DNA from: a virus
Strand: one strand, 5' to 3'
Virus genome (UHGV): UHGV-1360180
Length of the DNA: 43,730 nt
Below the pieces are notes generated by a model that did not search any database, was not told the origin of the DNA, and saw only the letters and a list, made by a program, of their open reading frames with translations. The stretch's first letter is position 1; each line of letters starts with the position of its first letter. Shown piece after piece: positions 10,195 through 39,634 of this stretch. The position numbers were made by a program, and so were the translations under genes.

Positions 10195-12822
10195 TTAACT
10201 AAAACCGTTGCTGAATCCGTCGGAGAAACCGCGACCGAAAGGCGCGACGCCGTCGTATTTATAGAAATCTGCTTCGTAGTTAATACCGGTTATTTTAACC
10301 GTTCTGTCATCCCCGGGGTCAACTGTAGAAACAAGAATCATCTGAGCATTATGCCTTGCTTCGTTGCCGAATGAAAACTCAGTTTTTAGTGCACTATTCC
10401 CCGTGTAAATTGCCTCCTGTGGGGCGGAGAGCATAATCACCTCGCGGTCGTGGCTCCCTTGAACAACGGCAACACTCTGAACACCACCGTCGCGCTTTTT
10501 GAGAATCAGTGAGTGGTCGTCACCAGGGGTAAATGTAACTGGCTGAGAAAGAGTAAGCGTAAGCCCATTAACGGCGATTACATAACCGTCTTGGGGCGCT
10601 ACGCGTGAACCTTTAACTACGCTTATGGCGCGCCCTGGCATTGCAAAAATCCCTTCTTCTGTCGCCGTGAATGATACTGTTACCTTCTTCAACAGGTTTT
10701 TCTGGTAGCGGCGGTATGCAGCCCAGTACGCCTGTTGATAATTACGGATACCTTTAGAGTCGTACGTTTCGGTATTAACGCCACCTTCTGCTGGGATGCT
10801 GATTGTCTCTTTGACGTTAGTATCCGGGTCGATGTATGAAAACTTGAGACTATCGTATACCTGGGCGTCGTTAAACGTGCGCGTCCACTTCTCCGTAGCG
10901 GTAGTTTTGCTGCGGTGGGTGAATACCATCTCGGGGCCAATCCGCGGGCGTTCAAAGTCCAGAAGAATATCCGCCCCTCTCCGGTATGGGGTGCAGAAAA
11001 TAGCATCAGCTATTGTGCTGATAATATCCTGCATGGTCATTTTATAATCGTCAAAAGTGTAGCAGAATTGGCCTGCCTCTGCGCTACCGAAATAGTTTTC
11101 TATCTCGGTCTGAGTCGCTAACAACTTGTCCATATTGGATGTTGTTAGGTTGAGATTACCTACTACCGGGTCGCGGGCAAGACGGATTAAGGACTGAATC
11201 GCCTGAGTATTCGGCGTCATAACCGTGTCGAATGTGCCGTTGCCGAGGTATTTGTACACCATCTCTGTGGCAATCATACGTAGTTGCGGCTGCTTAATCT
11301 CCGCGGCCCGCGGCGTCTGCTTACGTGCAGAGTGCACGGTAGTACGATTGCCGTAATGCGGCGTAGTGTCGCGGACCTGACCGTAAAGGTTGATATAGGA
11401 AACCTCGTCTACTACGGTCCCCTCGAAACTGAGGTCAAGGCTAGTAACGCGGCGGGCGCGCACTCTAACTTTAGACCTCACTGGCAAGTCGGCGTAAATA
11501 GTAACACCCGTGTAATCCGCAGAACGACCTGATATAGCGGCCTGTTTTGCGTAAACTTCTCCGTACGGCACGCCTGTTTCATCGAGGAGTTGGTATTGTA
11601 GCTCCACAGTTACAGATGTACGCAATTTACTGCCGTTGTCTTTATACATACCGTTCGCTGCCGCTATGTTGGCTACTACACGTTCAACTTCCAGGCGGTT
11701 TAAGGTAGTCCAGTCCGTTAACGACTTATCGTAGGTGTTAGATGGCGAAATCCATGCTTCGGTCCCTTGCGTTAAAGGAGTGAATCCCGATGGCAATTTT
11801 TGCCATTCTGACAACATCCCTCCAACGGCAACCCTTACCTCAAAGTCGTCTACGTAGGTGACGGTATAGCTACCACTGACGTTAGCTACGTCTTTTACCA
11901 GAATAAGGTTAAAAACAGCTATGTCACCCACTGATAAAATCTCAGAGAAAGCAGAGTCGCCAGTGTTATCCCGGACTACGCCAGTTGTTCCTTGCAATGA
12001 AATCTCACCGGTATCGCTGGGGTTAACCCTGATGTCGTTCTGAGCTTTCAAAACAGCGCCATCTACCTCGTTTGAAGCAATAGTTATGTATAGATGCTGA
12101 CCGATAGGCTCCCCCACCATAAGCTGAGGCGTATTTGTGTTATTAGGCGATGTAAATGGCGCGTACACTGCGACAGAAGTTCCTGTAATCTCCTGTACTT
12201 TAGTATCGCCGTCAGTGATGTCTTCGGCCTTAATATCAAGATACCCGCGACCTGCGTCATAGTAGCCGTATTCGACTACCACACCTGCGTCGTTGAAGAC
12301 CTTATACGTAGTCATGAGGTCATTAGGGATAGTCTGGACCCTGCCGCAAATATCATACGACCGTTCATACGGACGCGGTTTATTGTTTCGGTCCGTCAGG
12401 CTGTTGTTGGGGGACTCAGCCTGCTGGTTCGCTAAACTCGTTTTAGGCGTTTTCTGCGACGGAGAAATCAACTTGGTAACAAATTTAAGCACACCCAAAG
12501 GGTCCAGGAGTTTACCCAGAAAACCACCACCGCCGCCAGCACCCTCGATGATATGGAAAACGTCATCTTCTTTCAGCGCTTCGAAGTTTTCCGTTACTTC
12601 CGTATCCTCGCCAATCTCGCCACGGTAAATACGCACAGGTACCCCGTCTGGGATGTTAGCAACGACGTATTCCATCGGGGGTACGTTATACCGTTTGCGG
12701 TCAAAAGTACCGTCTTCGTTACGGGTGTAATGTAATATCAGCGCCAAAATTCTATCTCCGCATAAGTTTCGCGCAAGTCTTCCAGTCGGTCTAACCGTAC
12801 CTGACGACTCGCTAGCTCGCAA
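10195..12822 (-). CDS. Tail tip / central tail fiber protein (J-like host specificity protein)
   Basis: 875 aa, position after tail assembly genes; poly-Gly stretch, C-terminal GFSDGFSNGFS. Confidence 0.5.
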   Translation of the reverse strand: MRASESSGTVRPTGRLARNLCGDRILALILHYTRNEDGTFDRKRYNVPPMEYVVANIPDGVPVRIYRGEIGEDTEVTENFEALKEDDVFHIIEGAGGGGGFLGKLLDPLGVLKFVTKLISPSQKTPKTSLANQQAESPNNSLTDRNNKPRPYERSYDICGRVQTIPNDLMTTYKVFNDAGVVVEYGYYDAGRGYLDIKAEDITDGDTKVQEITGTSVAVYAPFTSPNNTNTPQLMVGEPIGQHLYITIASNEVDGAVLKAQNDIRVNPSDTGEISLQGTTGVVRDNTGDSAFSEILSVGDIAVFNLILVKDVANVSGSYTVTYVDDFEVRVAVGGMLSEWQKLPSGFTPLTQGTEAWISPSNTYDKSLTDWTTLNRLEVERVVANIAAANGMYKDNGSKLRTSVTVELQYQLLDETGVPYGEVYAKQAAISGRSADYTGVTIYADLPVRSKVRVRARRVTSLDLSFEGTVVDEVSYINLYGQVRDTTPHYGNRTTVHSARKQTPRAAEIKQPQLRMIATEMVYKYLGNGTFDTVMTPNTQAIQSLIRLARDPVVGNLNLTTSNMDKLLATQTEIENYFGSAEAGQFCYTFDDYKMTMQDIISTIADAIFCTPYRRGADILLDFERPRIGPEMVFTHRSKTTATEKWTRTFNDAQVYDSLKFSYIDPDTNVKETISIPAEGGVNTETYDSKGIRNYQQAYWAAYRRYQKNLLKKVTVSFTATEEGIFAMPGRAISVVKGSRVAPQDGYVIAVNGLTLTLSQPVTFTPGDDHSLILKKRDGGVQSVAVVQGSHDREVIMLSAPQEAIYTGNSALKTEFSFGNEARHNAQMILVSTVDPGDDRTVKITGINYEADFYKYDGVAPFGRGFSDGFSNGFS

Positions 12823-17297: not shown

Positions 17298-17330
17298 TTG
17301 CACACCCCAATATAATAGGGTACTATTCAC
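17298..17330 (+). promoter_or_regulatory. Conserved 33-bp promoter TTGCAC-N17-TACTAT with embedded AATAGGGTACTATT palindrome
   Basis: TTGCACACCCCAATATAATAGGGTACTATTCAC; near-identical copies at 26525, 29515 and, on the minus strand, 39602; 25 nt upstream of island gene at 17355. Confidence 0.5.
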
Positions 17331-17354
17331 CTGTAACTTACTGAGGAAATAATT

Positions 17355-17681
17355 ATGCGTAAATTAGTATTAGCTCTGGGGTTTATGTCTTTTGCTGCTT
17401 TTGGGTCTCCGTGCGAACAGGTATTTAGTGAATCTGTTCTTATTACTTCTGGCGTACTTGAGAAAGCCGACCCTACTATTGTAAAGGCGTTTAAGGACTC
17501 TACAGTTCGTGAATGTGAGGCCGCCGTAGAGGTCGGTAAATCGGGCCTACCCCCGCAAGCCGTAACGTACACGGTGATACGTTCGGTAGAGAAAAACGGA
17601 GACGCGTTTTACAGCCTACTGACGGCCACCCGCCTGCAAATGGTAATGACTGGGTGGGCGATAGGCGTGGAAAGTAAATAG
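17355..17681 (+). CDS. Small secreted/periplasmic protein
   Basis: 108 aa; N-terminal signal-peptide-like MRKLVLALGFMSFAAFG; RBS GAGGA; opposite strand to flanking tail genes. Confidence 0.5.
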   Translation: MRKLVLALGFMSFAAFGSPCEQVFSESVLITSGVLEKADPTIVKAFKDSTVRECEAAVEVGKSGLPPQAVTYTVIRSVEKNGDAFYSLLTATRLQMVMTGWAIGVESK

Positions 17682-17746
17682 TCGCCTTTATTTAAAGGAA
17701 TGCACTGTGGTTAAATAGGACAAATCCTAAACACGAGGACGTAAGA

Positions 17747-18877
17747 ATGGCCCAGAAGAAAATAACCGACGAACAGTTACAGGAAGAATTGAACGCCGGT
17801 ATGAAGAATATAGATATAGCTAGTAAATACGGCATCTCAGACCGCGTTATTCGTATTCGTAAGGCGAAGCTGGCTAAGAAAGGGGTCGGTCACGGGCGAG
17901 ACGTTAGTCACCTTGTGCCGGACGGCTACAAGATTAAAGGGACGTCGTCCCTGGTGGACGAGTTTGGCAACACTAAGTTGCAATGGGTTAAGACTGACAC
18001 TGACGCCGAACGTCAGGTCGAGTTGATGAAAGCCGTAATTGAGGGCATGAAGTCGGAGATTACGCCGGTCGCCCCTGTTAAAGCCGTTCGCGCCAAACGC
18101 GACGACAAACTACTCAATCTTTACACGGTATCTGATTTCCATCTCGGTATGCTGGCCTGGGCCGACGAGAGCGGCGACGACTGGGACATGAAGATTGCGG
18201 AAGACCTGTTCTCCCGTTGGTTCGATGCTGCATTTCAGAAAGCACCGGATGCGGGCACGGGCGTTATTAACCTGCTTGGCGACCTTGCGCACTTCGATAG
18301 CCTGGATGCGGTTACGCCAGCGAGTGGCCATGTTCTTGATGCGGACACGCGCTATCAGAAACTGGTCCGCTACATGATTCGCATGGTCCGCCGTGTTATT
18401 GATATGGCGCTGGTTAAGCATAAAAATGTTCGCTTGCTTATCGTGCAAGGTAACCACGACGAGAGTGGCATGATTTGGTTGGCTGAGATGTTCAGTACGC
18501 TGTACGACAATGAGCCGCGTGTGTTCGTCGATACGTCGCCGGATGTTTACAAGATGGTGCAACACGGCAAAACGACGCTGTTCTTTCATCACGGGCACAA
18601 GGCACGATTCGACGCTATCGAACCGGTTATGATCGCCAAGTTCCGTAAAGCCTTCGGCGAGAGTGTTTACAGCTACGCCCACGTAGGCCACCTGCACCAC
18701 CAAAAGATTGTAGAGAGCCGTAATATGGTTGTTGAGCAACACCGCACCTTAGCGGCTAAAGACGCCTACGCCTCTCGCGGCGGATGGATGTCAGGCCGTA
18801 GTGCAAATGTAATTACTTATAGCGCCGAATATGGTGAGGTCGCTCGTTTAACTATTTCACCGGAGATGCTGGGATGA
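17747..18877 (+). CDS. Metallophosphoesterase (SbcD/Mre11-like calcineurin-fold) with N-terminal HTH-like domain
   Basis: 376 aa; motifs VSDFHLG, GDLAHFD, GNHD, HHGH, GHLHH; N-terminal ~45 aa HTH-like (NIDIASKYGISDRVIRIRKAK). Confidence 0.6.
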   Translation: MAQKKITDEQLQEELNAGMKNIDIASKYGISDRVIRIRKAKLAKKGVGHGRDVSHLVPDGYKIKGTSSLVDEFGNTKLQWVKTDTDAERQVELMKAVIEGMKSEITPVAPVKAVRAKRDDKLLNLYTVSDFHLGMLAWADESGDDWDMKIAEDLFSRWFDAAFQKAPDAGTGVINLLGDLAHFDSLDAVTPASGHVLDADTRYQKLVRYMIRMVRRVIDMALVKHKNVRLLIVQGNHDESGMIWLAEMFSTLYDNEPRVFVDTSPDVYKMVQHGKTTLFFHHGHKARFDAIEPVMIAKFRKAFGESVYSYAHVGHLHHQKIVESRNMVVEQHRTLAAKDAYASRGGWMSGRSANVITYSAEYGEVARLTISPEMLG

Positions 18878-19104
18878 CTTCAAAATACAACCGAACAATG
18901 ACAAACACTCACGGCAGCACTATGACAGTAGACGTCTACGATGTGCTGCGCGCCTTCGATATCCGGGACCCGGCGTTACAGCACGCATTGAAGAAGCTAT
19001 TGTGCATGGGCTTGCGAGGCCACAAAGACACCGGAACAGACTTAGCGGAAGCAATCGAAAGTCTCGAGAAGTTACGGGAATACCGAAGTAACATTGACGA
19101 GTAA
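18874..19104 (+). CDS. Hypothetical protein
   Basis: 76 aa, ATGA-coupled to upstream gene. Confidence 0.4.
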   Translation: MTSKYNRTMTNTHGSTMTVDVYDVLRAFDIRDPALQHALKKLLCMGLRGHKDTGTDLAEAIESLEKLREYRSNIDE

Positions 19105-19109
19105 GAAAA

Positions 19110-19125
19110 GGCCCCGAAAGGGGCC
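19110..19125. terminator. Bidirectional terminator
   Basis: GGCCCC-GAAA-GGGGCC hairpin between convergent genes. Confidence 0.55.
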
Positions 19126-19131
19126 TTAGTT

Positions 19132-20304
19132 TTAGGCGTAGGTGATTCGTTGAATTACGATAGACGACTGGTACTGGTTGCCTGTGGACTGCCCTTCTAT
19201 ACTTTGGGTAATTGATTCCGGGCCAGATATTTCTGGCGTAACCGCCGTGAGTTCTGCGCGTTTCAGACTGAAAGACATAGCCCCGTTTACCCCCGCCAGA
19301 ATAGAGTTAATCTCTACCTGCTGTTCGTTGATAAACTTCTGAATCATCGCCATGTCGTACAGCTTGCCGGAGATGGAGAAGGTGTTGGCTGCACGGCCAC
19401 GTTCCACGAACGCAACGCTACTGTTGCCGAGTTCGAACTGTGCGGACGCGCCGTTGTCGTTGGTGATGGTCAGAGTATCGCAACGCAACGGCGTAGAGCC
19501 GTCAAACACAGACACATCTACAGACGAGAATGGCTCATCAGTAAACGTCACCTGCGAGAAGTCAGAACCTGCTGGCGGTGCAGAAAGAATCTCCTGACTC
19601 AGACCGATGAACGGGAAGCTACCAGTTACCATAGCGTTGACGGCCTGCTCGATGGTGAAACCGGAGATTTCCACGCCCTTAGTCAACATGTACGCGTCAG
19701 GGTTCCCGCACTGTCCTTTGAACCATGTCAGGATGGAGAACGTCTTACATGCGTTACCAGTTTCCAGCTTGTCGCCAGTTTTAGCGTCAGTGACTACAGT
19801 CTCTGCTGTCAGCGTGTGCTGAATGCCAGCACCCGTAACTACAAGAGCAGAAACCTCGGTCACGATAAACGGTTTTGCGTTGTCGCTGGTTAAGTCGGTG
19901 AACGCAATCAGGTCGCCAACTTCTACACCGTCAGTAATAAAGCTACCGGCAGCGCGGGTAAATGTTTTACCTGCTGGGGCAACCGTAATTTCAGCACCCG
20001 TAATCTCTACCCCAGCTTGCCACGTAGAAGTCATAGCACCTGCAAGGAAATCATCCTGGCTACGCGAGCTAAGTTCGATGGCATATTCCCCGCTAACCTG
20101 CTTGTTGCCGGTGCGGATTGATGTGGTTTCACGGCTCCCATCGAGTTCGTTGGAAGTCAGCGCATCGCGGGTTACGGCAGGAACGCCACCAGTGTTACGC
20201 AACGGAGACCATACCGGGTTACTTGGTGTTACGCCCGGGGTCACTTCCGCCACATAGAATTGCGCGGTATTCGCGCCCTTAAAAGGAGTTGTAGCCATAT
20301 TCAC
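19132..20304 (-). CDS. Major tail protein (putative)
   Basis: 390 aa; last gene before chaperone/tape measure genes, followed by strong terminator. Confidence 0.45.
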   Translation of the reverse strand: MNMATTPFKGANTAQFYVAEVTPGVTPSNPVWSPLRNTGGVPAVTRDALTSNELDGSRETTSIRTGNKQVSGEYAIELSSRSQDDFLAGAMTSTWQAGVEITGAEITVAPAGKTFTRAAGSFITDGVEVGDLIAFTDLTSDNAKPFIVTEVSALVVTGAGIQHTLTAETVVTDAKTGDKLETGNACKTFSILTWFKGQCGNPDAYMLTKGVEISGFTIEQAVNAMVTGSFPFIGLSQEILSAPPAGSDFSQVTFTDEPFSSVDVSVFDGSTPLRCDTLTITNDNGASAQFELGNSSVAFVERGRAANTFSISGKLYDMAMIQKFINEQQVEINSILAGVNGAMSFSLKRAELTAVTPEISGPESITQSIEGQSTGNQYQSSIVIQRITYA

Positions 20305-25709: not shown

Positions 25710-25973
25710 CTATTCCAGAATATTCCTCACGTAATCCTGCAGCATGAACACTTTCAGTCTCAGTTGCCGTACACATTCGGCGTTCTGGACGTCGATAGCT
25801 AAATCCTCGTCAGCGTCACTACTTGGTGGTGCCAGTTTGCACGGCGGCTGCATCATCGTCGTATCCGGGGATGGAATTGGCGTTTGCGACGGCGCGGGAC
25901 TTGAGCATGACGCGAGCATCATCGAAAGTGCACACGCTGCGACCAGGCGTTTTAATGTATTTAACGACTTCAC
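25710..25973 (-). CDS. o-spanin (Rz1-like outer-membrane lipoprotein)
   Basis: Signal peptide with lipobox LASC, Pro-rich mature region; overlaps i-spanin gene in another frame. Confidence 0.55.
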   Translation of the reverse strand: MKSLNTLKRLVAACALSMMLASCSSPAPSQTPIPSPDTTMMQPPCKLAPPSSDADEDLAIDVQNAECVRQLRLKVFMLQDYVRNILE

Positions 25974-26205
25974 GGGTAATCACCTCTGATTTCGTCTTGC
26001 CTTCGTTGTCAGCGGCGGCGGCCTTAGATTCATCCTGCTGCTGCCGTTGTGTTTTCTTCGCTAACTCAGCCTGTGCTTTCTGCTGTTGCTGAGAAACGAG
26101 ATTCGCCCGGCCTTCGTTCCAGCCGATGCGGTATTGATAGTAGCCGTGTGCGTATAACAGGATGATGAAACATGCTCCTGCTACGACAGTTGCGTTAAGA
26201 TTCAT
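25819..26205 (-). CDS. i-spanin (Rz-like)
   Basis: N-terminal transmembrane anchor VVAGACFIILLY, Gln/Ala-rich coiled coil, overlapping lipoprotein ORF. Confidence 0.55.
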   Translation of the reverse strand: MNLNATVVAGACFIILLYAHGYYQYRIGWNEGRANLVSQQQQKAQAELAKKTQRQQQDESKAAAADNEGKTKSEVITREVVKYIKTPGRSVCTFDDARVMLKSRAVANANSIPGYDDDAAAVQTGTTK

Positions 26206-26524
26206 GTTTCTCCTTTCTCGATAAGTAAAGCCCCGCCATAAAGCGGGGCGCTAGGCCTTATCATTTAAACATAGAAACGGCGTAATCTCAGTAAACCAGT
26301 TACTTTTTACACAAGCAATAGAGTATGGCCATTCCGAACGCGTCAGCGTAACTACACTCAAGACTTACGTCCCGCTCCGTTACCTGCCCGCGCCGCGGTC
26401 GCTTGTTCATACTTCACAAGCTCAGGTGGAGCTTAGCACATTTTCAGTGAAAAGTCAACTATTCGAATAGTTTATTCTAACATTTACAATTCGGTGGAAT
26501 AACTGGAATAGGTTAATAAATAGT

Positions 26525-26557
26525 TTGCACACCCCAACATAATAGGGTACTATTCAC
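26525..26557 (+). promoter_or_regulatory. Conserved 33-bp promoter (TTGCAC-N17-TACTAT) with AATAGGGTACTATT palindrome
   Basis: TTGCACACCCCAACATAATAGGGTACTATTCAC; upstream of plus-strand island. Confidence 0.5.
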
Positions 26558-26594
26558 TTACACCAACAATGTTAACTTAAATGGGAGATGGAAA

Positions 26595-26756
26595 ATGAAA
26601 TTAGCAAAAAGAATTACCGTAAATACTAATTTAAGTTCGAAAAATGGGGACAAACGTAAGTTCCGCCGTAAAATGCGTCAGATTGTTAAACTTGACTACA
26701 TTTTCGAAGAAACGATTGCACTAGTGGCAAACGCTGCCCGTAACTGGGGGCGCTAA
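26595..26756 (+). CDS. Small basic protein (53 aa)
   Basis: Manual translation MKLAKRITVNTNLSSKNGDKRKFRRKMRQ...; RBS GGGAGATGG; first gene of island. Confidence 0.3.
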   Translation: MKLAKRITVNTNLSSKNGDKRKFRRKMRQIVKLDYIFEETIALVANAARNWGR

Positions 26757-26757
26757 T

Positions 26758-27222
26758 ATGATGTATGCAATTTACGTAGCGGCGATATGCGCTGCTAACT
26801 TTTCGGTAACTGTGTTTGGTCCGTTAGCGACACCGGTAAATGCCTTTCTACTTATTGGGCTTGATTTCGTAATAAGAGATAAGTTGCACGAGAGGATTGG
26901 CGTACAAAAAATATTCATACTGATACTAGTAGCTGGCATTATAAGTTTCTCCATAAACCCGGCAACCGGAAAGATTGCTGTGGCAAGCGTTGTTGCCTTC
27001 GCTTGTGCTGCCATCCTGGATGCCGTTGTTTACCAGGCACTAATCAATAAAAAGTGGCTAGTTAAGTCAAATGTAAGTAATACCGCGGCCTCGGCGGCGG
27101 ACTCTTTTATTTTCCCACTAATAGCTTTCGGTTCTTTCATGCCGCTAGTCGTACTGGGCCAATTCGCGGCTAAGGTTTTTGGCGGAGCTTTGTGGTCTTT
27201 CTTGTTGAGGAAAATTAAATGA
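26758..27222 (+). CDS. Polytopic membrane protein, candidate queuosine-precursor transporter (YhhQ/DUF165-like)
   Basis: 154 aa, ~4 hydrophobic helices; translationally coupled to TGT-like gene; family assignment from recall, not a search. Confidence 0.4.
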   Translation: MMYAIYVAAICAANFSVTVFGPLATPVNAFLLIGLDFVIRDKLHERIGVQKIFILILVAGIISFSINPATGKIAVASVVAFACAAILDAVVYQALINKKWLVKSNVSNTAASAADSFIFPLIAFGSFMPLVVLGQFAAKVFGGALWSFLLRKIK

Positions 27223-27953
27223 CGGTGCATTACCACGGGGGTCCTATTTGGGGTGGGGATGAGCTTATAAAAGCATTGTACCGTGGGGGTGGCGCTCTGG
27301 TGTCATATGCCCGCCCTGACCAAATACAAAAAATCGCCGCCTTGAGATGTAAATTAGTGTTGGACAACGGAGCTTTTTCGACATGGAAGAAAGCACCTGA
27401 CAACATAGACTGGAGCGCCCATTGGGCAGGATATTATGATTTTGTCGGAGAGTGGTTCAGTCGTATTGAGTGGTTCATTATACCGGACGTTATAGAGGGC
27501 ACGGAGGAAGAGAACGACGCATTAATAGAAACTGTCCCAGATTGGTTAAGGTCTAAGGCAGTCCCGGTGTGGCACAGTGACGAAAGCATAAGAAGACTAG
27601 TAAAGCTGTGCCGTGGGTTCAATCGGGTAGCGATAGGTTGCTGCGGACCGCACAGGGCCATACGGTCTAAGTCATGGGAGAAAAGAATGGACCAGGCGTT
27701 TAATGCGGTTTATAGAAACAGAAAATTGGATGTAAAACTCCATGGCCTTAGAATGCTGGATGGGAGGGCTCTAAGCCGTTATCCTTTCGACAGCGCTGAC
27801 AGTACAAACGTAGCTATAAATGTGCCAAAAACTAAAGCAAGACTACCTAACATAACAGACAAACTACATCGAACCGCTATAATGAGGCACACCATAGAAA
27901 TGGTTAAACCCCCTACAGTAACGGAATGGTTACTTAAAACTAAGGCCCCTTAA
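27219..27953 (+). CDS. tRNA-guanine-transglycosylase-like protein, candidate DNA 7-deazaguanine transglycosylase (DpdA-like)
   Basis: 244 aa; LVLDNGAF resembles TGT substrate-binding motif (TDSGGFQ); acidic IIPDVIEG; adjacent to transporter-like gene. Confidence 0.5.
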   Translation: MTVHYHGGPIWGGDELIKALYRGGGALVSYARPDQIQKIAALRCKLVLDNGAFSTWKKAPDNIDWSAHWAGYYDFVGEWFSRIEWFIIPDVIEGTEEENDALIETVPDWLRSKAVPVWHSDESIRRLVKLCRGFNRVAIGCCGPHRAIRSKSWEKRMDQAFNAVYRNRKLDVKLHGLRMLDGRALSRYPFDSADSTNVAINVPKTKARLPNITDKLHRTAIMRHTIEMVKPPTVTEWLLKTKAP

Positions 27954-27964
27954 CGGGGCCTTTT
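27944..27964. terminator. Bidirectional terminator
   Basis: GGCCCC-TTAAC-GGGGCC-TTTT; overlaps stop of TGT-like gene. Confidence 0.55.
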
Positions 27965-27965
27965 A

Positions 27966-28427
27966 TCATTCTGGCTTAGTGACCTTCGCCGCTTTGCTAA
28001 CGGTCTCTACGCCACCGGCATCGGTAACCTTAACGAAGTATTCGCCCGCAGCGTTAACCGTCAGAGACAAAGCCTCTTCGGGGGCGTTTACCACTTCCTT
28101 TCCGTCTTTGTACCAGGTAAGCGCGTATGGCGCTTTGCCTGCCTTAACTTCGACAGCGATAGTTGCGCTGCCGTCTGTCAGTTCTGTATCTTTCGGCTGC
28201 ACAGAGAAATACACATCGCCAGCGTCCGCCAGATACGGGATTTCATAAAGCATACCCGCCGCCGGTAACGTAATGCCGGTTTTATCCGCAAACGGCATAT
28301 CGTCTACAGGTGTACCGGGTACACTTTCATCCTCAATAAACACCACGTTCTCACCAGAGCCAGACACGCGGGCGTACTGTACTACGCGACGTGACGGTAC
28401 GTCAGTTACTTTGAAAAAGCCCATCAT
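27966..28427 (-). CDS. Hypothetical structural protein (beta-rich, possible Ig-like)
   Basis: 153 aa downstream of head morphogenesis gene. Confidence 0.35.
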   Translation of the reverse strand: MMGFFKVTDVPSRRVVQYARVSGSGENVVFIEDESVPGTPVDDMPFADKTGITLPAAGMLYEIPYLADAGDVYFSVQPKDTELTDGSATIAVEVKAGKAPYALTWYKDGKEVVNAPEEALSLTVNAAGEYFVKVTDAGGVETVSKAAKVTKPE

Positions 28428-29524
28428 TATTCCCCTTTCAGATAATCAGCAACACGTTTATCGAGTTCCGCCATCTGCTTAAGCGTCAGCGGATTCCCGA
28501 AACCATCTACAGATATTACGCGAAACTCTTCCGGCGATATACCGCTGTTACGGAAAATCTTACCGCGAACAGGGCCGAGCGCCTGGTCCTGGAACCATGC
28601 CGGTTGCTGTTTCAGGAACTCGTAATAGGTTGTGTCTGCGCTTACTTGTGTGCCGCCGTCCGCGCCCTTAGCAGCGCGTTTTGCCCCTTTATCGAGGAAG
28701 TCGAACTCTGAACTGATTACCGGAGCCGTACACGACCGACAGTTCGGATGGGCTGGTGGCATCGGCCCTTTACCGATCTCCCACGTCATTCCGTCTCTGG
28801 CTCTGCAAATCGTACTGGTACGGCTATCAAGCGTTGACACCCACTCGTACTTCTCGATGATGTCGTCGTTCTGGCGGTACGTCTCGTTACGGGCTTCGTT
28901 GGACACATGGGACAGGGCAGTGCGGATTACGGTAGCCGCGTTACGTTCAGAGATATCAGCCAGGCCACCGGCACCAACAACATTCTTTACAATCTGCCGC
29001 GTTGTCTGACCCTGAACAAAGCCCATCTTAACGCCGGTTACCAGGCGCGATACCTCTGTTTCACCCCAGCCCGACATCAGCTTAGTGAAGTCAACAGGCT
29101 TGTCACCCAACGATAAGGGTTGAAACTCGGCCGCGGCCCACACCTGCTCGGCAGTAGGCGTAACAAATTCCGCGTCTACGTTGGCGGTAAGTGTCTTTGC
29201 GTTCCACTCAGCCTCGTACGCCGCCAGTTCCTTAAGGTCTTCTGTCAGTTTTGTTTGCCAGTCGCCTGTAAGTCCGGTTAACGCTTCTTCAAGGTCGCGT
29301 AACAGTTTATTCAGTCGCGCAGTGCTGCGCCCATCGTCGCCGAATAGCAGAACCTGCCGTTTGATTTCATCTCGCATTTCCTGAATGAACGGCGCGAGGT
29401 CTTTCACCTCACCGGATGCGGTGCGTTGCAGCCATATCTGGTGGCTGATTAGGGATGTAAGTAAGCTCATAAGCCCTCCTGTCGTATCGACAGTGTAACG
29501 CATAAAAATAATATTTGCAGACAC
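28427..29524 (-). CDS. Head morphogenesis protein (minor head protein family, putative)
   Basis: 365 aa directly downstream of portal gene, the usual position for this family. Confidence 0.45.
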   Translation of the reverse strand: MSANIIFMRYTVDTTGGLMSLLTSLISHQIWLQRTASGEVKDLAPFIQEMRDEIKRQVLLFGDDGRSTARLNKLLRDLEEALTGLTGDWQTKLTEDLKELAAYEAEWNAKTLTANVDAEFVTPTAEQVWAAAEFQPLSLGDKPVDFTKLMSGWGETEVSRLVTGVKMGFVQGQTTRQIVKNVVGAGGLADISERNAATVIRTALSHVSNEARNETYRQNDDIIEKYEWVSTLDSRTSTICRARDGMTWEIGKGPMPPAHPNCRSCTAPVISSEFDFLDKGAKRAAKGADGGTQVSADTTYYEFLKQQPAWFQDQALGPVRGKIFRNSGISPEEFRVISVDGFGNPLTLKQMAELDKRVADYLKGE

Positions 29525-29547
29525 CAGTATAATAGGGTACTATTCAC
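29515..29547 (+). promoter_or_regulatory. Conserved 33-bp promoter (TTGCAG-N17-TACTAT variant) with AATAGGGTACTATT palindrome
   Basis: TTGCAGACACCAGTATAATAGGGTACTATTCAC upstream of single-gene island. Confidence 0.5.
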
Positions 29548-29585
29548 GTATAGGTGCTATTGAACGGAAAGAGAGGTTTACTAAA

Positions 29586-29900
29586 ATGATTGATTATCGT
29601 GCTCGCGCCACAAAAGCGGAACAAGAGAACGCTGTTTTAAGAGATAAATTAGCAAAAAAGCCTAATTTTGCTTGGTTCGTAGAGCAGGTAAGGTCTATGC
29701 TTAAAATACGTGCTGACGCACCTTTTAACGAAATAATAGCTAAGATTAAGGTATTGCGCGACAATCAAGAGCTATATAGAGAGGGTGCCGCAGTTCGTAA
29801 GTCCAACGATGAAGATGCAGAAAGATACTTCAATGAGGGTGTAGAGGAAGGAAAAAGAATGGAACGCGATAGAATTAAAAAACTAATAGGAAAAGTCTAA
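29586..29900 (+). CDS. Hypothetical protein (single-gene island)
   Basis: 104 aa, charged/helical; RBS GAGAGG; own promoter and terminator; opposite strand to flanking portal/head genes. Confidence 0.45.
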   Translation: MIDYRARATKAEQENAVLRDKLAKKPNFAWFVEQVRSMLKIRADAPFNEIIAKIKVLRDNQELYREGAAVRKSNDEDAERYFNEGVEEGKRMERDRIKKLIGKV

Positions 29901-29920
29901 GGCCCCTTATGGGGCCTTTT
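29901..29920. terminator. Bidirectional terminator
   Basis: GGCCCC-TTAT-GGGGCC-TTTT. Confidence 0.55.
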
Positions 29921-29922
29921 CT

Positions 29923-31392
29923 TTACTGTTGTGGTTGCGCCGACTGCGGAATCTCCCCAGATACCTGAGTAACAGCACCCAACGGCAGCGGTGCATCCTC
30001 AATAGCGTTCTGAATGTCCTCGTCTGTCCAGTCAGTTACGCCCGCCTTGCGTAATGCCGCGTAGTAAGCAGTAGCCGGTAGCAGGCCTGCGTTAATATCA
30101 GCCATCCACTGAGCGCGGTCCTGCGCGGTCATAGGTTGCAGGAAGAACTCCATATTCAGTTTGAACTCAATCTCTGTGCCTTCGCGCAATCCGAGCATCG
30201 CAGCTACCCAGCGCAATGCATCGGTATATGCCATGCTTACATTACGTGCAATTGTCGCCATAACGGACGTGTCAGCGCCGCGTTGCAGGCGGGCAGATTC
30301 AGCGGTGATTTGCTGTGTCGGGGTGATAAGCTGCGCACCAATCTGGATGGCCTGATTCTCTTTATCCAGCATGTTCTGCTTGGCGAGGTTGTTCTCTCCC
30401 GCCTGGACCAGAAACGCATTGCCGCCGTAGCCGATGTTATGGCCAGAACGCGACCCCATGCGCACACCGTGTGGGTTGGCTTCTTTCCACTGCTCCAGGC
30501 TCATATTCTCGCCCGGGGCGATGAACAGAGTGGGCTGGCCCACAACGAAGCTGGACTCCTCATTGTCCGCGCTGTTGCGGAAATGCCCGATATTAAGCTC
30601 AGCCAACGGCAGCAAAGGCGCATCGTCGATGGTTGCGTCGTTGTTGCTCGCCCCGATGAACGTGAACGGGATTTTTCCGCGTAACTGTTCGCCGAGTTCC
30701 GGGAATATTTCGATTACTTCGCCCTGAGCACCACCTTCGGCGTCGAAGCGGTAAATGCGCTGACGGTATCGTCCGTCAATCAAATCAAGAACGCGATACT
30801 GCTCACCGAATTTTGTTTCGAACTCTGCGCCAGGTTCGGAGTATTCCCATACTTCGCGCAACACGACCATTGTCACGCGGTTAACCGAACCGATGCGTGT
30901 CAGCCGCCAGTTGATGATGTTCTCTGCGGTGTAGAATGCGATTACCGGATTTAATAATCCTGCGTTCTGTTCTGCCGCCGTTGCCGCGGCTGTCTCCGGG
31001 GCGTCCACCAGCAACCCGCCACGGCCAACCGAGTCAACCTCCATCAGCGTATCCTGCGCGTGCTGCCACAGCCCGACACCGGAGCCGTCGGCGTTACGTA
31101 ACAGATACTCAAGCTCAGGCGGAATAATCTGCTCGGGGTCTTTACGCATCACTGACCCAACCATCCCCGCCAGGGTGCGCTTGGTGAAGTTGTAGCAGAT
31201 AGCGCCGTTCTCGTATTCTTCCTGGCGCTGTGCCGCGTAGGTCGGGTCCGGTTCGTTCTTCCCGACGTTGCGCAGGTAGCGAATAAGGTCGCCCTCCAGC
31301 GCGTGGCGTACCTTCTGCCATTTATCAAAGTGATGCAGCCATTCCCGGTGTTTTGTCTTAACACCCTGATTCTGACCGTTCATAGTTAACAT
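29923..31392 (-). CDS. Portal protein
   Basis: 489 aa immediately downstream of terminase large subunit. Confidence 0.6.
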   Translation of the reverse strand: MLTMNGQNQGVKTKHREWLHHFDKWQKVRHALEGDLIRYLRNVGKNEPDPTYAAQRQEEYENGAICYNFTKRTLAGMVGSVMRKDPEQIIPPELEYLLRNADGSGVGLWQHAQDTLMEVDSVGRGGLLVDAPETAAATAAEQNAGLLNPVIAFYTAENIINWRLTRIGSVNRVTMVVLREVWEYSEPGAEFETKFGEQYRVLDLIDGRYRQRIYRFDAEGGAQGEVIEIFPELGEQLRGKIPFTFIGASNNDATIDDAPLLPLAELNIGHFRNSADNEESSFVVGQPTLFIAPGENMSLEQWKEANPHGVRMGSRSGHNIGYGGNAFLVQAGENNLAKQNMLDKENQAIQIGAQLITPTQQITAESARLQRGADTSVMATIARNVSMAYTDALRWVAAMLGLREGTEIEFKLNMEFFLQPMTAQDRAQWMADINAGLLPATAYYAALRKAGVTDWTDEDIQNAIEDAPLPLGAVTQVSGEIPQSAQPQQ

Positions 31393-38114: not shown

Positions 38115-38251
38115 CTACCCCGACTAGCAGCGATTTAGTGTCGCCGTTGCGCACCGAAGTGCTACCCAGTATTTCGTAAGCGTCTACCAGTTCGCCTAAA
38201 GTCCAGCTACCGTACCAGCCCATCTTCTGTCTCTCCCCTCATCTGTGTATA

Positions 38252-39601: not shown

Positions 39602-39634
39602 GTGAATAGTATCCTATTATGTTGGGGTGTGCAA
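39602..39634 (-). promoter_or_regulatory. Conserved 33-bp promoter (TTGCAC-N17-TACTAT), leftward early promoter
   Basis: Reverse complement TTGCACACCCCAACATAATAGGATACTATTCAC. Confidence 0.5.

Follow-up and report, generated by a model that had tools for sequence, protein, structure and literature searches.

Here, we identify a plus-strand cassette of three genes at positions 26525-27964 of the virus genome UHGV-1360180 as a candidate system for DNA modification by base salvage. The whole stretch of 43,730 nucleotides was analyzed and is called the window below. The cassette encodes a DpdA-type guanine transglycosylase of 244 amino acids (aa), a VUT/YhhQ-family membrane protein of 154 aa and a basic protein of 53 aa. 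We suggest that this salvage cassette probably replaces guanines in phage DNA with scavenged 7-deazaguanine bases, which is the best explanation overall. An earlier reading of the DNA letters alone (the original prediction) had proposed that the phage imports a queuosine precursor of its host and places it in its own DNA as an anti-restriction measure, and had named profile searches with both larger proteins and a fold prediction for the 244-aa protein as checks. This interpretation is largely supported, and both family assignments hold up. That DNA is the target and that it is modified to a useful extent, as well as the substrate (preQ0 or preQ1), the early timing and the anti-restriction benefit, are inferred.

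The 244-aa Protein Is Related to Phage DpdA

The 244-aa protein matches PHROG 887, "queuine tRNA-ribosyltransferase," with E = 4.6e-84, and the DpdA of phage CAjan matches the same family with E = 8.2e-96. Deletion of dpdA in CAjan abolishes dPreQ0 modification (PMC7544227). When a profile of 34 sequences was aligned with CAjan DpdA by hhalign, the two matched with a probability of 93.9% (E = 1.6e-7) over 161 columns, and a series of motifs paired between the 244-aa protein and CAjan DpdA, i.e., LDNGAFS/LDSGAFS, VPVWH/LPCFH, VAIG/ITIGG, KLHGL/KLHAF and YPFDSADST/YPWYSCDSS. The fold prediction gave a confident TIM barrel with a pLDDT of 91 and the (beta/alpha)8 architecture of tRNA-guanine transglycosylases (TGTs). 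In a Foldseek search against the PDB, TGTs were the top three matches (E ~2e-4, TM score 0.55), mixed with generic TIM barrels, and this result is not decisive alone.

D49, D90, H119 and D194 are invariant in the 34 homologues and F53 is nearly so, and in the predicted structure all five are located at the C-terminal ends of barrel strands. In bacterial DpdA, mutagenesis assigned D95 as the general acid/base together with F99 as an aromatic gate and D256 as the nucleophile, and D130 and H181 are the base-recognition residues (PMC10164549). Judged from sequence, D49 and F53 appear to correspond to D95 and F99 of bacterial DpdA, with the same Asp-to-Phe spacing of four, and D194 appears to correspond to D256. 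Both members of the catalytic pair, D49 in LDNGAF and D194 in SADST, align with LDSGAF and SCDSS of CAjan DpdA. D90 and H119 are candidate counterparts of D130 and H181, but hhalign sets the base-binding Asp of CAjan DpdA opposite E93 and not opposite the invariant D90.

A C-terminal zinc-binding CxCxxC...H subdomain is a hallmark of TGTs. This subdomain was not found in the 244-aa protein, which has no cysteine after D194 and ends 50 residues later. We discarded the zinc-binding motif as a criterion for DpdA, as the validated CAjan DpdA also lacks it. The 244-aa protein is classed here not as a TGT in the strict sense but as a member of the phage "singleton DpdA" clade. Of the original label, "TGT/DpdA-like," the DpdA part stands on the PHROG and hhalign matches and the strict TGT part is given up (see Discussion). 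Clustered at 50% identity, the DpdA family is large, with 2317 clusters at an E cut-off of 1e-3 and 148 at a cut-off of 1e-30, and no DpdA of an INPHARED phage is more than 67% identical to the 244-aa protein.

The 154-aa Membrane Protein Is Coupled to DpdA

The 154-aa protein scores 39.9 bits against Pfam Vut_1/PF02592, for which the gathering score is 27.2. It shares PHROG 4899 (E = 1.9e-37) with CAjan gp41, a "putative preQ0 transporter" (E = 1.1e-47), to which it is 29% identical. These matches bear out the family to which it was originally assigned. Its fold is that of a polytopic membrane protein with six helices, of the kind that captures small molecules, and, as modeled, appears to resemble ECF S-components. 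Escherichia coli YhhQ (COG1738), a preQ0/preQ1 transporter, shares Pfam Vut_1 with the phage protein, and the motifs DxxxR, ASxxA...DxxVY/F and S...DSxxF line up between the two. However, YhhQ has 221 aa, and the shorter phage protein is below the equivalog cut-off and has a candidate substrate only. All 120 homologues among the matches listed carry PF02592 and are 153-172 aa in length, and many are encoded on 40-60 kb contigs. We conclude that the 154-aa protein is a compact phage version of the VUT/YhhQ family.

The stop codon of the VUT gene and the start codon of dpdA overlap in ATGA (4 nt). The VUT gene is directly upstream of dpdA with the same 4-nt overlap in the metagenomic phage contigs L010, L011 and L012, which have different backbones. 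Pectobacterium phage PEAT2, on yet another backbone, has the same pair as gp18-gp19, annotated as a VUT family protein and a "queuine tRNA-ribosyltransferase," with an annotated 31-nt overlap and with 73% and 67% identity to the window proteins; in PEAT2, however, the pair follows a primase gene in the replication module. In Flyfo siphovirus Tbat1_6, the pair is present as gp36-gp34 (72% and 42% identical) on another backbone and together with the 53-aa gene. A VUT homologue is present in 15 INPHARED records, all of them from phages that were also found in the DpdA search, and adjacency was confirmed by coordinates for 9 of these records. Judging by these gene orders, VUT and DpdA form a translationally coupled mobile pair that has spread across several unrelated phage backbones. 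As separate observations, L011 additionally encodes a Dam-type methylase (PF05869) at 10244-10741, and the pair in L012 abuts Mu-F-like and portal genes in the opposite orientation, which recalls the placement in the window and in Tbat1_6.

For the 53-aa protein, the phage collection contains a single homologue, which is equally long, shares 53% identity and is encoded directly upstream of the VUT-DpdA pair in Tbat1_6. The gene is absent from PEAT2 and from L010-L012. Because of its position upstream of the pair in Tbat1_6, the 53-aa gene is a likely optional third component of the module.

Precursor Supply and Comparison with Known Systems

A tblastn search of the window with FolE, QueD, QueE and QueC of CAjan returned nothing below E 0.5, while CAjan DpdA and YhhQ do match the island in the same search. 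Thus, as originally stated, the window has no folE or queC/D/E, and it is not a complete modification cluster of the CAjan/9g type. The phage must therefore rely on host-made or imported precursor.

Phages CAjan (dPreQ0) and 9g (dG+) of Seuratvirus/Nonagvirus, which like the window phage have E. coli as host, share a homologous DpdA (DpdA1) and a short VUT/YhhQ protein with the window. However, CAjan makes its own preQ0 via FolE, QueD, QueE and QueC encoded in a 12-gene cluster, and 25-32% of its G is modified. In addition, yhhQ of CAjan is dispensable and does not adjoin dpdA (PMC7544227), unlike in the coupled pair described here. Two observations bear on the feasibility of salvage. When folE or queC is missing, CAjan DNA still receives preQ0 from the host, but 12-fold less of it (PMC7544227), and DpdA of phage 9g alone inserts dPreQ0 into plasmid DNA in E. 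coli (PMC6884629).

The singleton DpdAs of gamma-proteobacterial phages, the third group of Hutinet et al. (2019), include those of Salmonella phage 7-11 and Escherichia phage HK106. They are ~240-260 aa long and 61-65% identical to the 244-aa protein over 94-98% of the length, and they likewise come without folE or queC/D/E. In neither 7-11 nor HK106 does dpdA have a VUT gene as neighbor, whereas the window has a coupled VUT gene, the 53-aa gene and the Guernseyvirinae promoter-to-terminator slot described below. Hutinet et al. also mentioned that some phages encode YhhQ homologues, "with no correlation" to any of the groups (PMC6884629). The bacterial Dpd system (DpdA/DpdB/DpdC of S. Montevideo; PDB 7ui4) has the same proposed aspartate pair and aromatic gate (PMC10164549), but bacterial DpdA has 413 aa with extra insertions, is part of a restriction system and has no HMMER-level similarity to the 244-aa protein.

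The Cassette Occupies a Cargo Slot with Exchangeable Content

The window is the genome of a Kagunavirus-like (Guernseyvirinae) siphophage. With half of the window as the query against 50,697 phage records, megablast matched Kagunavirus/Jerseyvirus siphophages, with Escherichia phages EF2-1, BUCT825 and XY1 as the best relatives (~90% identity over 74-79% of the query). The cassette is on the plus strand and surrounded by minus-strand late genes (Table 1). Its GC content is 0.449 compared to 0.510 for the window, which is in the 4th percentile among 1440-bp windows, and the GC content at third codon positions is 0.39-0.46 in the cassette open reading frames (ORFs) compared to 0.57-0.70 in the adjoining structural genes. 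The lower-GC plus-strand island within minus-strand structural genes is thus as first described, and so are its three ORFs (53, 154 and 244 aa), the LVLDNGAF motif and the acidic PD motif. The island had also been placed between the spanin and head-morphogenesis genes; this is correct for the left side, but on the right side an Ig-like gene intervenes.

A megablast search with 26400-28000 matched 182 related phages via the flanks only (14% coverage), and the cargo DNA was matched by none of these 182 records. We aligned the slot with those of Salmonella phages S100 and SE124_1FR, Escherichia phages XY2 and SHAK7693, and one metagenomic contig. In the relatives, sequence conservation covers the promoter, the 5' leader and the ribosome-binding site as far as the ATG, is lost in the interior and returns with the terminator hairpin. 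As cargo, S100 has an N6/N4 DNA methylase (Pfam E = 4e-30), XY2 a RusA-like protein (best PHROG E = 3.8e-36), SE124_1FR an endonuclease-VII-like protein and SHAK7693 a 63-aa ORF. Site 26525-27964 is a fixed cargo slot between the spanin and Ig-like genes, the content of which is exchanged among relatives. It has the features of a moron or cargo slot: it is bounded by a promoter and a terminator of its own, runs against the surrounding genes, has an atypical composition and differs in content between close relatives. Two database entries used here deserve comment. vB_EcoM_SHAK7693 (L007, OR594180.1) is filed under Autographiviridae/Kayfunavirus, but its DNA here matches Kagunavirus-type phages, likely an annotation problem; and the cargo of XY2 (L005, MN927226.1) is annotated as "DNA polymerase III sliding clamp," but its Pfam clamp score is sub-threshold and the RusA-like match is best, likely a misannotation.

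The same three-gene cassette is present in the same slot in the Logan assemblies SRR30129429 and SRR28159143, as collinear 42.19-kb contigs with 91.5% nucleotide identity to the window; the view of the island as unique to the window genome is therefore wrong. Compared to the Logan contigs, the ratio of synonymous to non-synonymous codon changes is 8:1 for the 53-aa gene (vs. contig L002), 24:8 for the 154-aa gene and 41:12 for the 244-aa gene. Because the codon differences are mostly synonymous, all three ORFs are real genes under purifying selection. The cassette was not found in any Guernseyvirinae record of INPHARED. A donor prophage among complete E. coli genomes was considered and rejected, as none has the cassette and only 11 of 5426 genomes have a distant DpdA (66% nucleotide identity).

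Table 1. Positions of the cassette features and neighboring genes in the window
Feature	Position	Strand	Remarks
Perfect 16-bp palindrome AACTATTCGAATAGTT	26457-26472	.	Operator-like; upstream of cassette promoter; AATAG/CTATT half-sites as in promoter elements
33-nt promoter-like element TTGCACACCCCAACATAATAGGGTACTATTCAC	26525-26557	+	TTGCAC, 17 nt, TACTAT; embedded AATAG-N4-CTATT palindrome
53-aa basic protein	26595-26756	+	Unknown function; putative optional third module member
VUT/YhhQ-family six-helix membrane protein, 154 aa	26758-27222	+	Candidate 7-deazaguanine base importer; hydrophobic throughout
DpdA-type (singleton clade) guanine transglycosylase, 244 aa	27219-27953	+	LVLDNGAF at residues 46-53, IIPDV at 87-91
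Intrinsic-terminator hairpin AAGGCCCC-TTAAC-GGGGCCTT and T-run	27942-27962	.	Called on both strands; closes cassette
Rz-like and o-spanin genes	25819-26205 and 25710-25973	minus	Left of cassette, with scaffold gene
Ig-like (Hoc-like) head decoration gene, 153 aa	27966-28427	minus	Immediate right neighbor, convergent with cassette
Mu-F-like head morphogenesis gene	28427-29524	minus	Next after Ig-like gene

Promoter-Like Elements, Palindromes and Terminators

The 33-nt element at the head of the cassette recurs with one mismatch each at 17298 (+) and 39602 (-), with 0 copies expected in shuffles, and a fourth, looser copy is located at 29515 (+). Each copy is followed, 25-45 nt downstream, by a Shine-Dalgarno sequence with an ATG. 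The element was not called by a scan for the sigma-70 consensus, to which it is a weak match with ~8 of 12 hexamer positions (TTGCAC or TTTGCA, 17-18 nt, TACTAT). Thus, of the conserved promoter originally placed here, the conservation is confirmed by recurrence while the consensus match is not, and we infer promoter function from position and repetition rather than from consensus strength. Because all 33 nt are conserved, including the spacer and the AATAG-N4-CTATT palindrome, the element may, its conservation suggests, contain an overlapping regulator-binding site. The single mismatch to the copy at 39602 (-) agrees with the resemblance to the leftward promoter noted in the original prediction. 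The same promoter type heads the leftward small-ORF cluster from 39602, which suggests that the cassette may be expressed early.

The 16-bp palindrome upstream of the cassette promoter is intact in five of six aligned phages, and S100 has one substitution, AACTATTAGAATAGTT. Palindromic sites are found at 1762, 5415 and 43088 (+), at 17298, 26525 and 29515 (+), at 39602 (-), at 38246 and 43048, and, with the 16-bp palindrome, at 26457-26472. An AATAG-N4-CTATT palindrome is embedded in two promoter-like classes, one with TTGACA-17 nt-TATAGT upstream of rightward replication genes and the other with TTGCAC...TACTAT. Together, these palindromes look like putative operators for a single phage regulator.

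The terminator originally proposed for the cassette was recovered as a hairpin that also follows the convergent Ig-like decoration gene and is conserved in all aligned relatives, whatever the cargo. It is one of five near-identical AAGGCCCC-loop-GGGGCCTT hairpins in the window (2499, 8239, 19108, 27942 and 29899). Such hairpins are found at every strand switch and look bidirectional. A separate strong terminator-like hairpin at 26230-26249 (-), GCCCCGCTTTATGGCGGGGC followed by TTTACTTATC, is located just upstream of the spanin gene, within a stretch otherwise readable as a single long late operon; it is preceded by a 36-aa minus-strand ORF (26300-26410) that is annotated in relatives.

Two further plus-strand units share the promoter element and the terminator family. 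A second mini-cassette at 29512-29926 (+), between the Mu-F-like and portal genes of the minus-strand head block, has the promoter element at 29515, the terminator copy at 29899 and a GC content of 0.395; its single 104-aa ORF (29586-29900) matches only the unknown-function PHROGs 10768 and 16432. This mini-cassette is missing from the otherwise collinear contigs L002 and L003. The third unit, 17298-19135, is located among minus-strand tail genes and has three ORFs: one for a 108-aa signal-peptide protein, one for a DNA-repair exonuclease of 376 aa (PHROG 704, E = 2.7e-167) and one of 76 aa (18874-19104). In PEAT2, too, a gene ~2 kb downstream of dpdA is labeled "DNA repair exonuclease." For the 76-aa ORF, a match was found to the C terminus of CAjan gp40 (tblastn E = 8.7e-12), an unknown gene within the CAjan 7-deazaguanine cluster. 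We considered this ORF as a second pathway-linked locus and rejected it, as the domain is spread over six unknown-function PHROGs and the link may be coincidental.

Discussion

We propose the following sequence of events for the base-salvage reading that we consider probable. Transcription of the cassette would start at a promoter of the kind also found ahead of the leftward cluster of small ORFs and so probably early in infection. The VUT protein would reside in the inner membrane and capture a free extracellular 7-deazaguanine base, be it preQ0, preQ1 or a related one, and the imported base would supplement the host pool made by FolE and QueCDE(F). On replicated phage DNA, DpdA would then recognize a sequence motif and flip out its guanines, displace the guanine by double displacement via a covalent intermediate on Asp194 with Asp49 as the general acid/base, and install the 7-deazaguanine. 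As a result, progeny DNA may be partly shielded from restriction enzymes. Kagunaviruses are highly sensitive to restriction-modification systems (PMC11990801), and this sensitivity, together with the methylase in the same slot of S100, would by analogy fit a role in DNA protection.

Several findings weigh against this reading. The 244-aa protein has no Pfam or NCBIfam match at E up to 1, TGT models included, and neither phmmer nor a profile hmmsearch found a relevant match to it among PDB sequences, so that HMMER provides no bridge to TGT or bacterial DpdA; the sole PDB-sequence match, 4eog (E = 1), is noise. CAjan DpdA used as a phmmer query against PDB sequences found nothing either. The hhalign comparison of the 34-sequence profile with E. 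coli Tgt was also not significant, with a probability of 0.65%. Of the profile searches named in the original prediction, the search for the transporter thus succeeded with Vut_1 above the gathering score and the search for DpdA succeeded via PHROG and hhalign, while the TGT models of Pfam and NCBIfam gave nothing. The 154-aa protein misses the YhhQ equivalog cut-offs of NCBIfam (29.8 bits vs. 50.95 for TIGR00697 and 24.2 vs. 252 for PRK11212), its hhalign match to E. coli YhhQ is weak (probability 27.7%, E = 6.4e-4), and deletion of the VUT homologue of CAjan left modification unchanged (PMC7544227). Bacterial DpdA requires the ATPase DpdB (PMC10164549), and no DpdB-like partner was identified for the window DpdA. 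Phage 7-11, the sole tested member of the singleton clade, had 50 dADG per 10^6 nt, i.e., ~0.02% of G, and no dPreQ0 (PMC6884629), and its DpdA, at 61% identity, is the closest tested relative of the 244-aa protein. Hutinet et al. left open a functional divergence of this clade (PMC6884629). Finally, because nuclease cargos are found in the same slot, the location says "DNA metabolism" and not specifically "anti-restriction."

The result for phage 7-11 leads to the alternative that the cassette proteins are real homologues but yield only trace modification, with little or no protection from restriction under ordinary conditions; any benefit would then be conditional, e.g., on abundant precursor, or come from another property of DNA binding by DpdA. 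This would agree with the missing preQ0 synthesis genes in the window and with the finding that host-derived preQ0 in CAjan supports only 1/12 of the wild-type level (PMC7544227). However, phage 7-11 has no VUT gene and is, therefore, no fair proxy for the complete module. Moreover, the purifying selection on all three ORFs and the spread of the VUT-DpdA pair over several unrelated backbones with its coupling intact speak against a system of little consequence, and we consider the trace-modification alternative rather unlikely.

A different target is harder still to reconcile with the data. That the enzyme has RNA as its target (tRNA of the host or of the phage) or otherwise manipulates the queuosine pool, and that the cassette tunes translation during infection, seems improbable to us, even though the singleton DpdAs cluster apart with a function flagged as possibly diverged (PMC6884629) and a precursor importer would equally serve the synthesis of queuosine-tRNA. 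Both the best structural match and the sole significant profile match are to DpdAs that act on DNA, TGT models and E. coli Tgt give no match, and the 244-aa protein is a bare barrel that lacks the C-terminal zinc and PUA-type tRNA-binding parts. In addition, E. coli already has Tgt and YhhQ. We regard it as highly improbable that the enzyme attaches deazaguanine to a protein, as does the TGT-like Cap10 in type IV CBASS, or acts as a counter-defense decoy, because neither a QueC-like Cap9 partner nor a CD-NTase is found in the cassette or window and the sequence-level homology is to phage DpdA and not to Cap10.

Returning to the modification of phage DNA by salvage, a bolder version can be formulated. 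The trio may be a self-contained, horizontally mobile, salvage-only hypermodification cassette that reaches protective levels of modification without synthesis genes, is fed by deazapurines of the environment or host (preQ0, preQ1 and possibly gut queuine), and has the 53-aa protein as an accessory, e.g., a DNA-loading helper in the role of DpdB. We put this version forward as a tentative possibility and consider it doubtful as a whole.

The kind of system described here is already known, and the genes themselves will not surprise a specialist. To our knowledge, phages with DpdA and YhhQ but without their own precursor synthesis are a catalogued kind that has never been shown to work. In the 2019 census, phages with DpdA but no preQ0 synthesis genes formed the largest group (Hutinet et al., PMC6884629). 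What is modestly new is that VUT and DpdA form a tight and mobile pair, that the 53-aa gene recurs and that the cargo is swapped in a slot running from promoter to terminator.

The window phage is a clean natural test system for salvage-only DNA modification, and its small genome (43.7 kb) belongs to a type that has been suggested for use in synthetic biology. Because the slot holds a methylase, a nuclease or almost nothing in close relatives, near-isogenic comparisons are possible. If the proposed function is correct, two or three genes would suffice for restriction evasion by base salvage, and the epigenetic state of a phage could depend on the availability of queuosine precursors in the gut. 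This would also bear on the host range of Kagunaviruses in phage therapy, given their sensitivity to restriction, and on the engineering of restriction-resistant phages.

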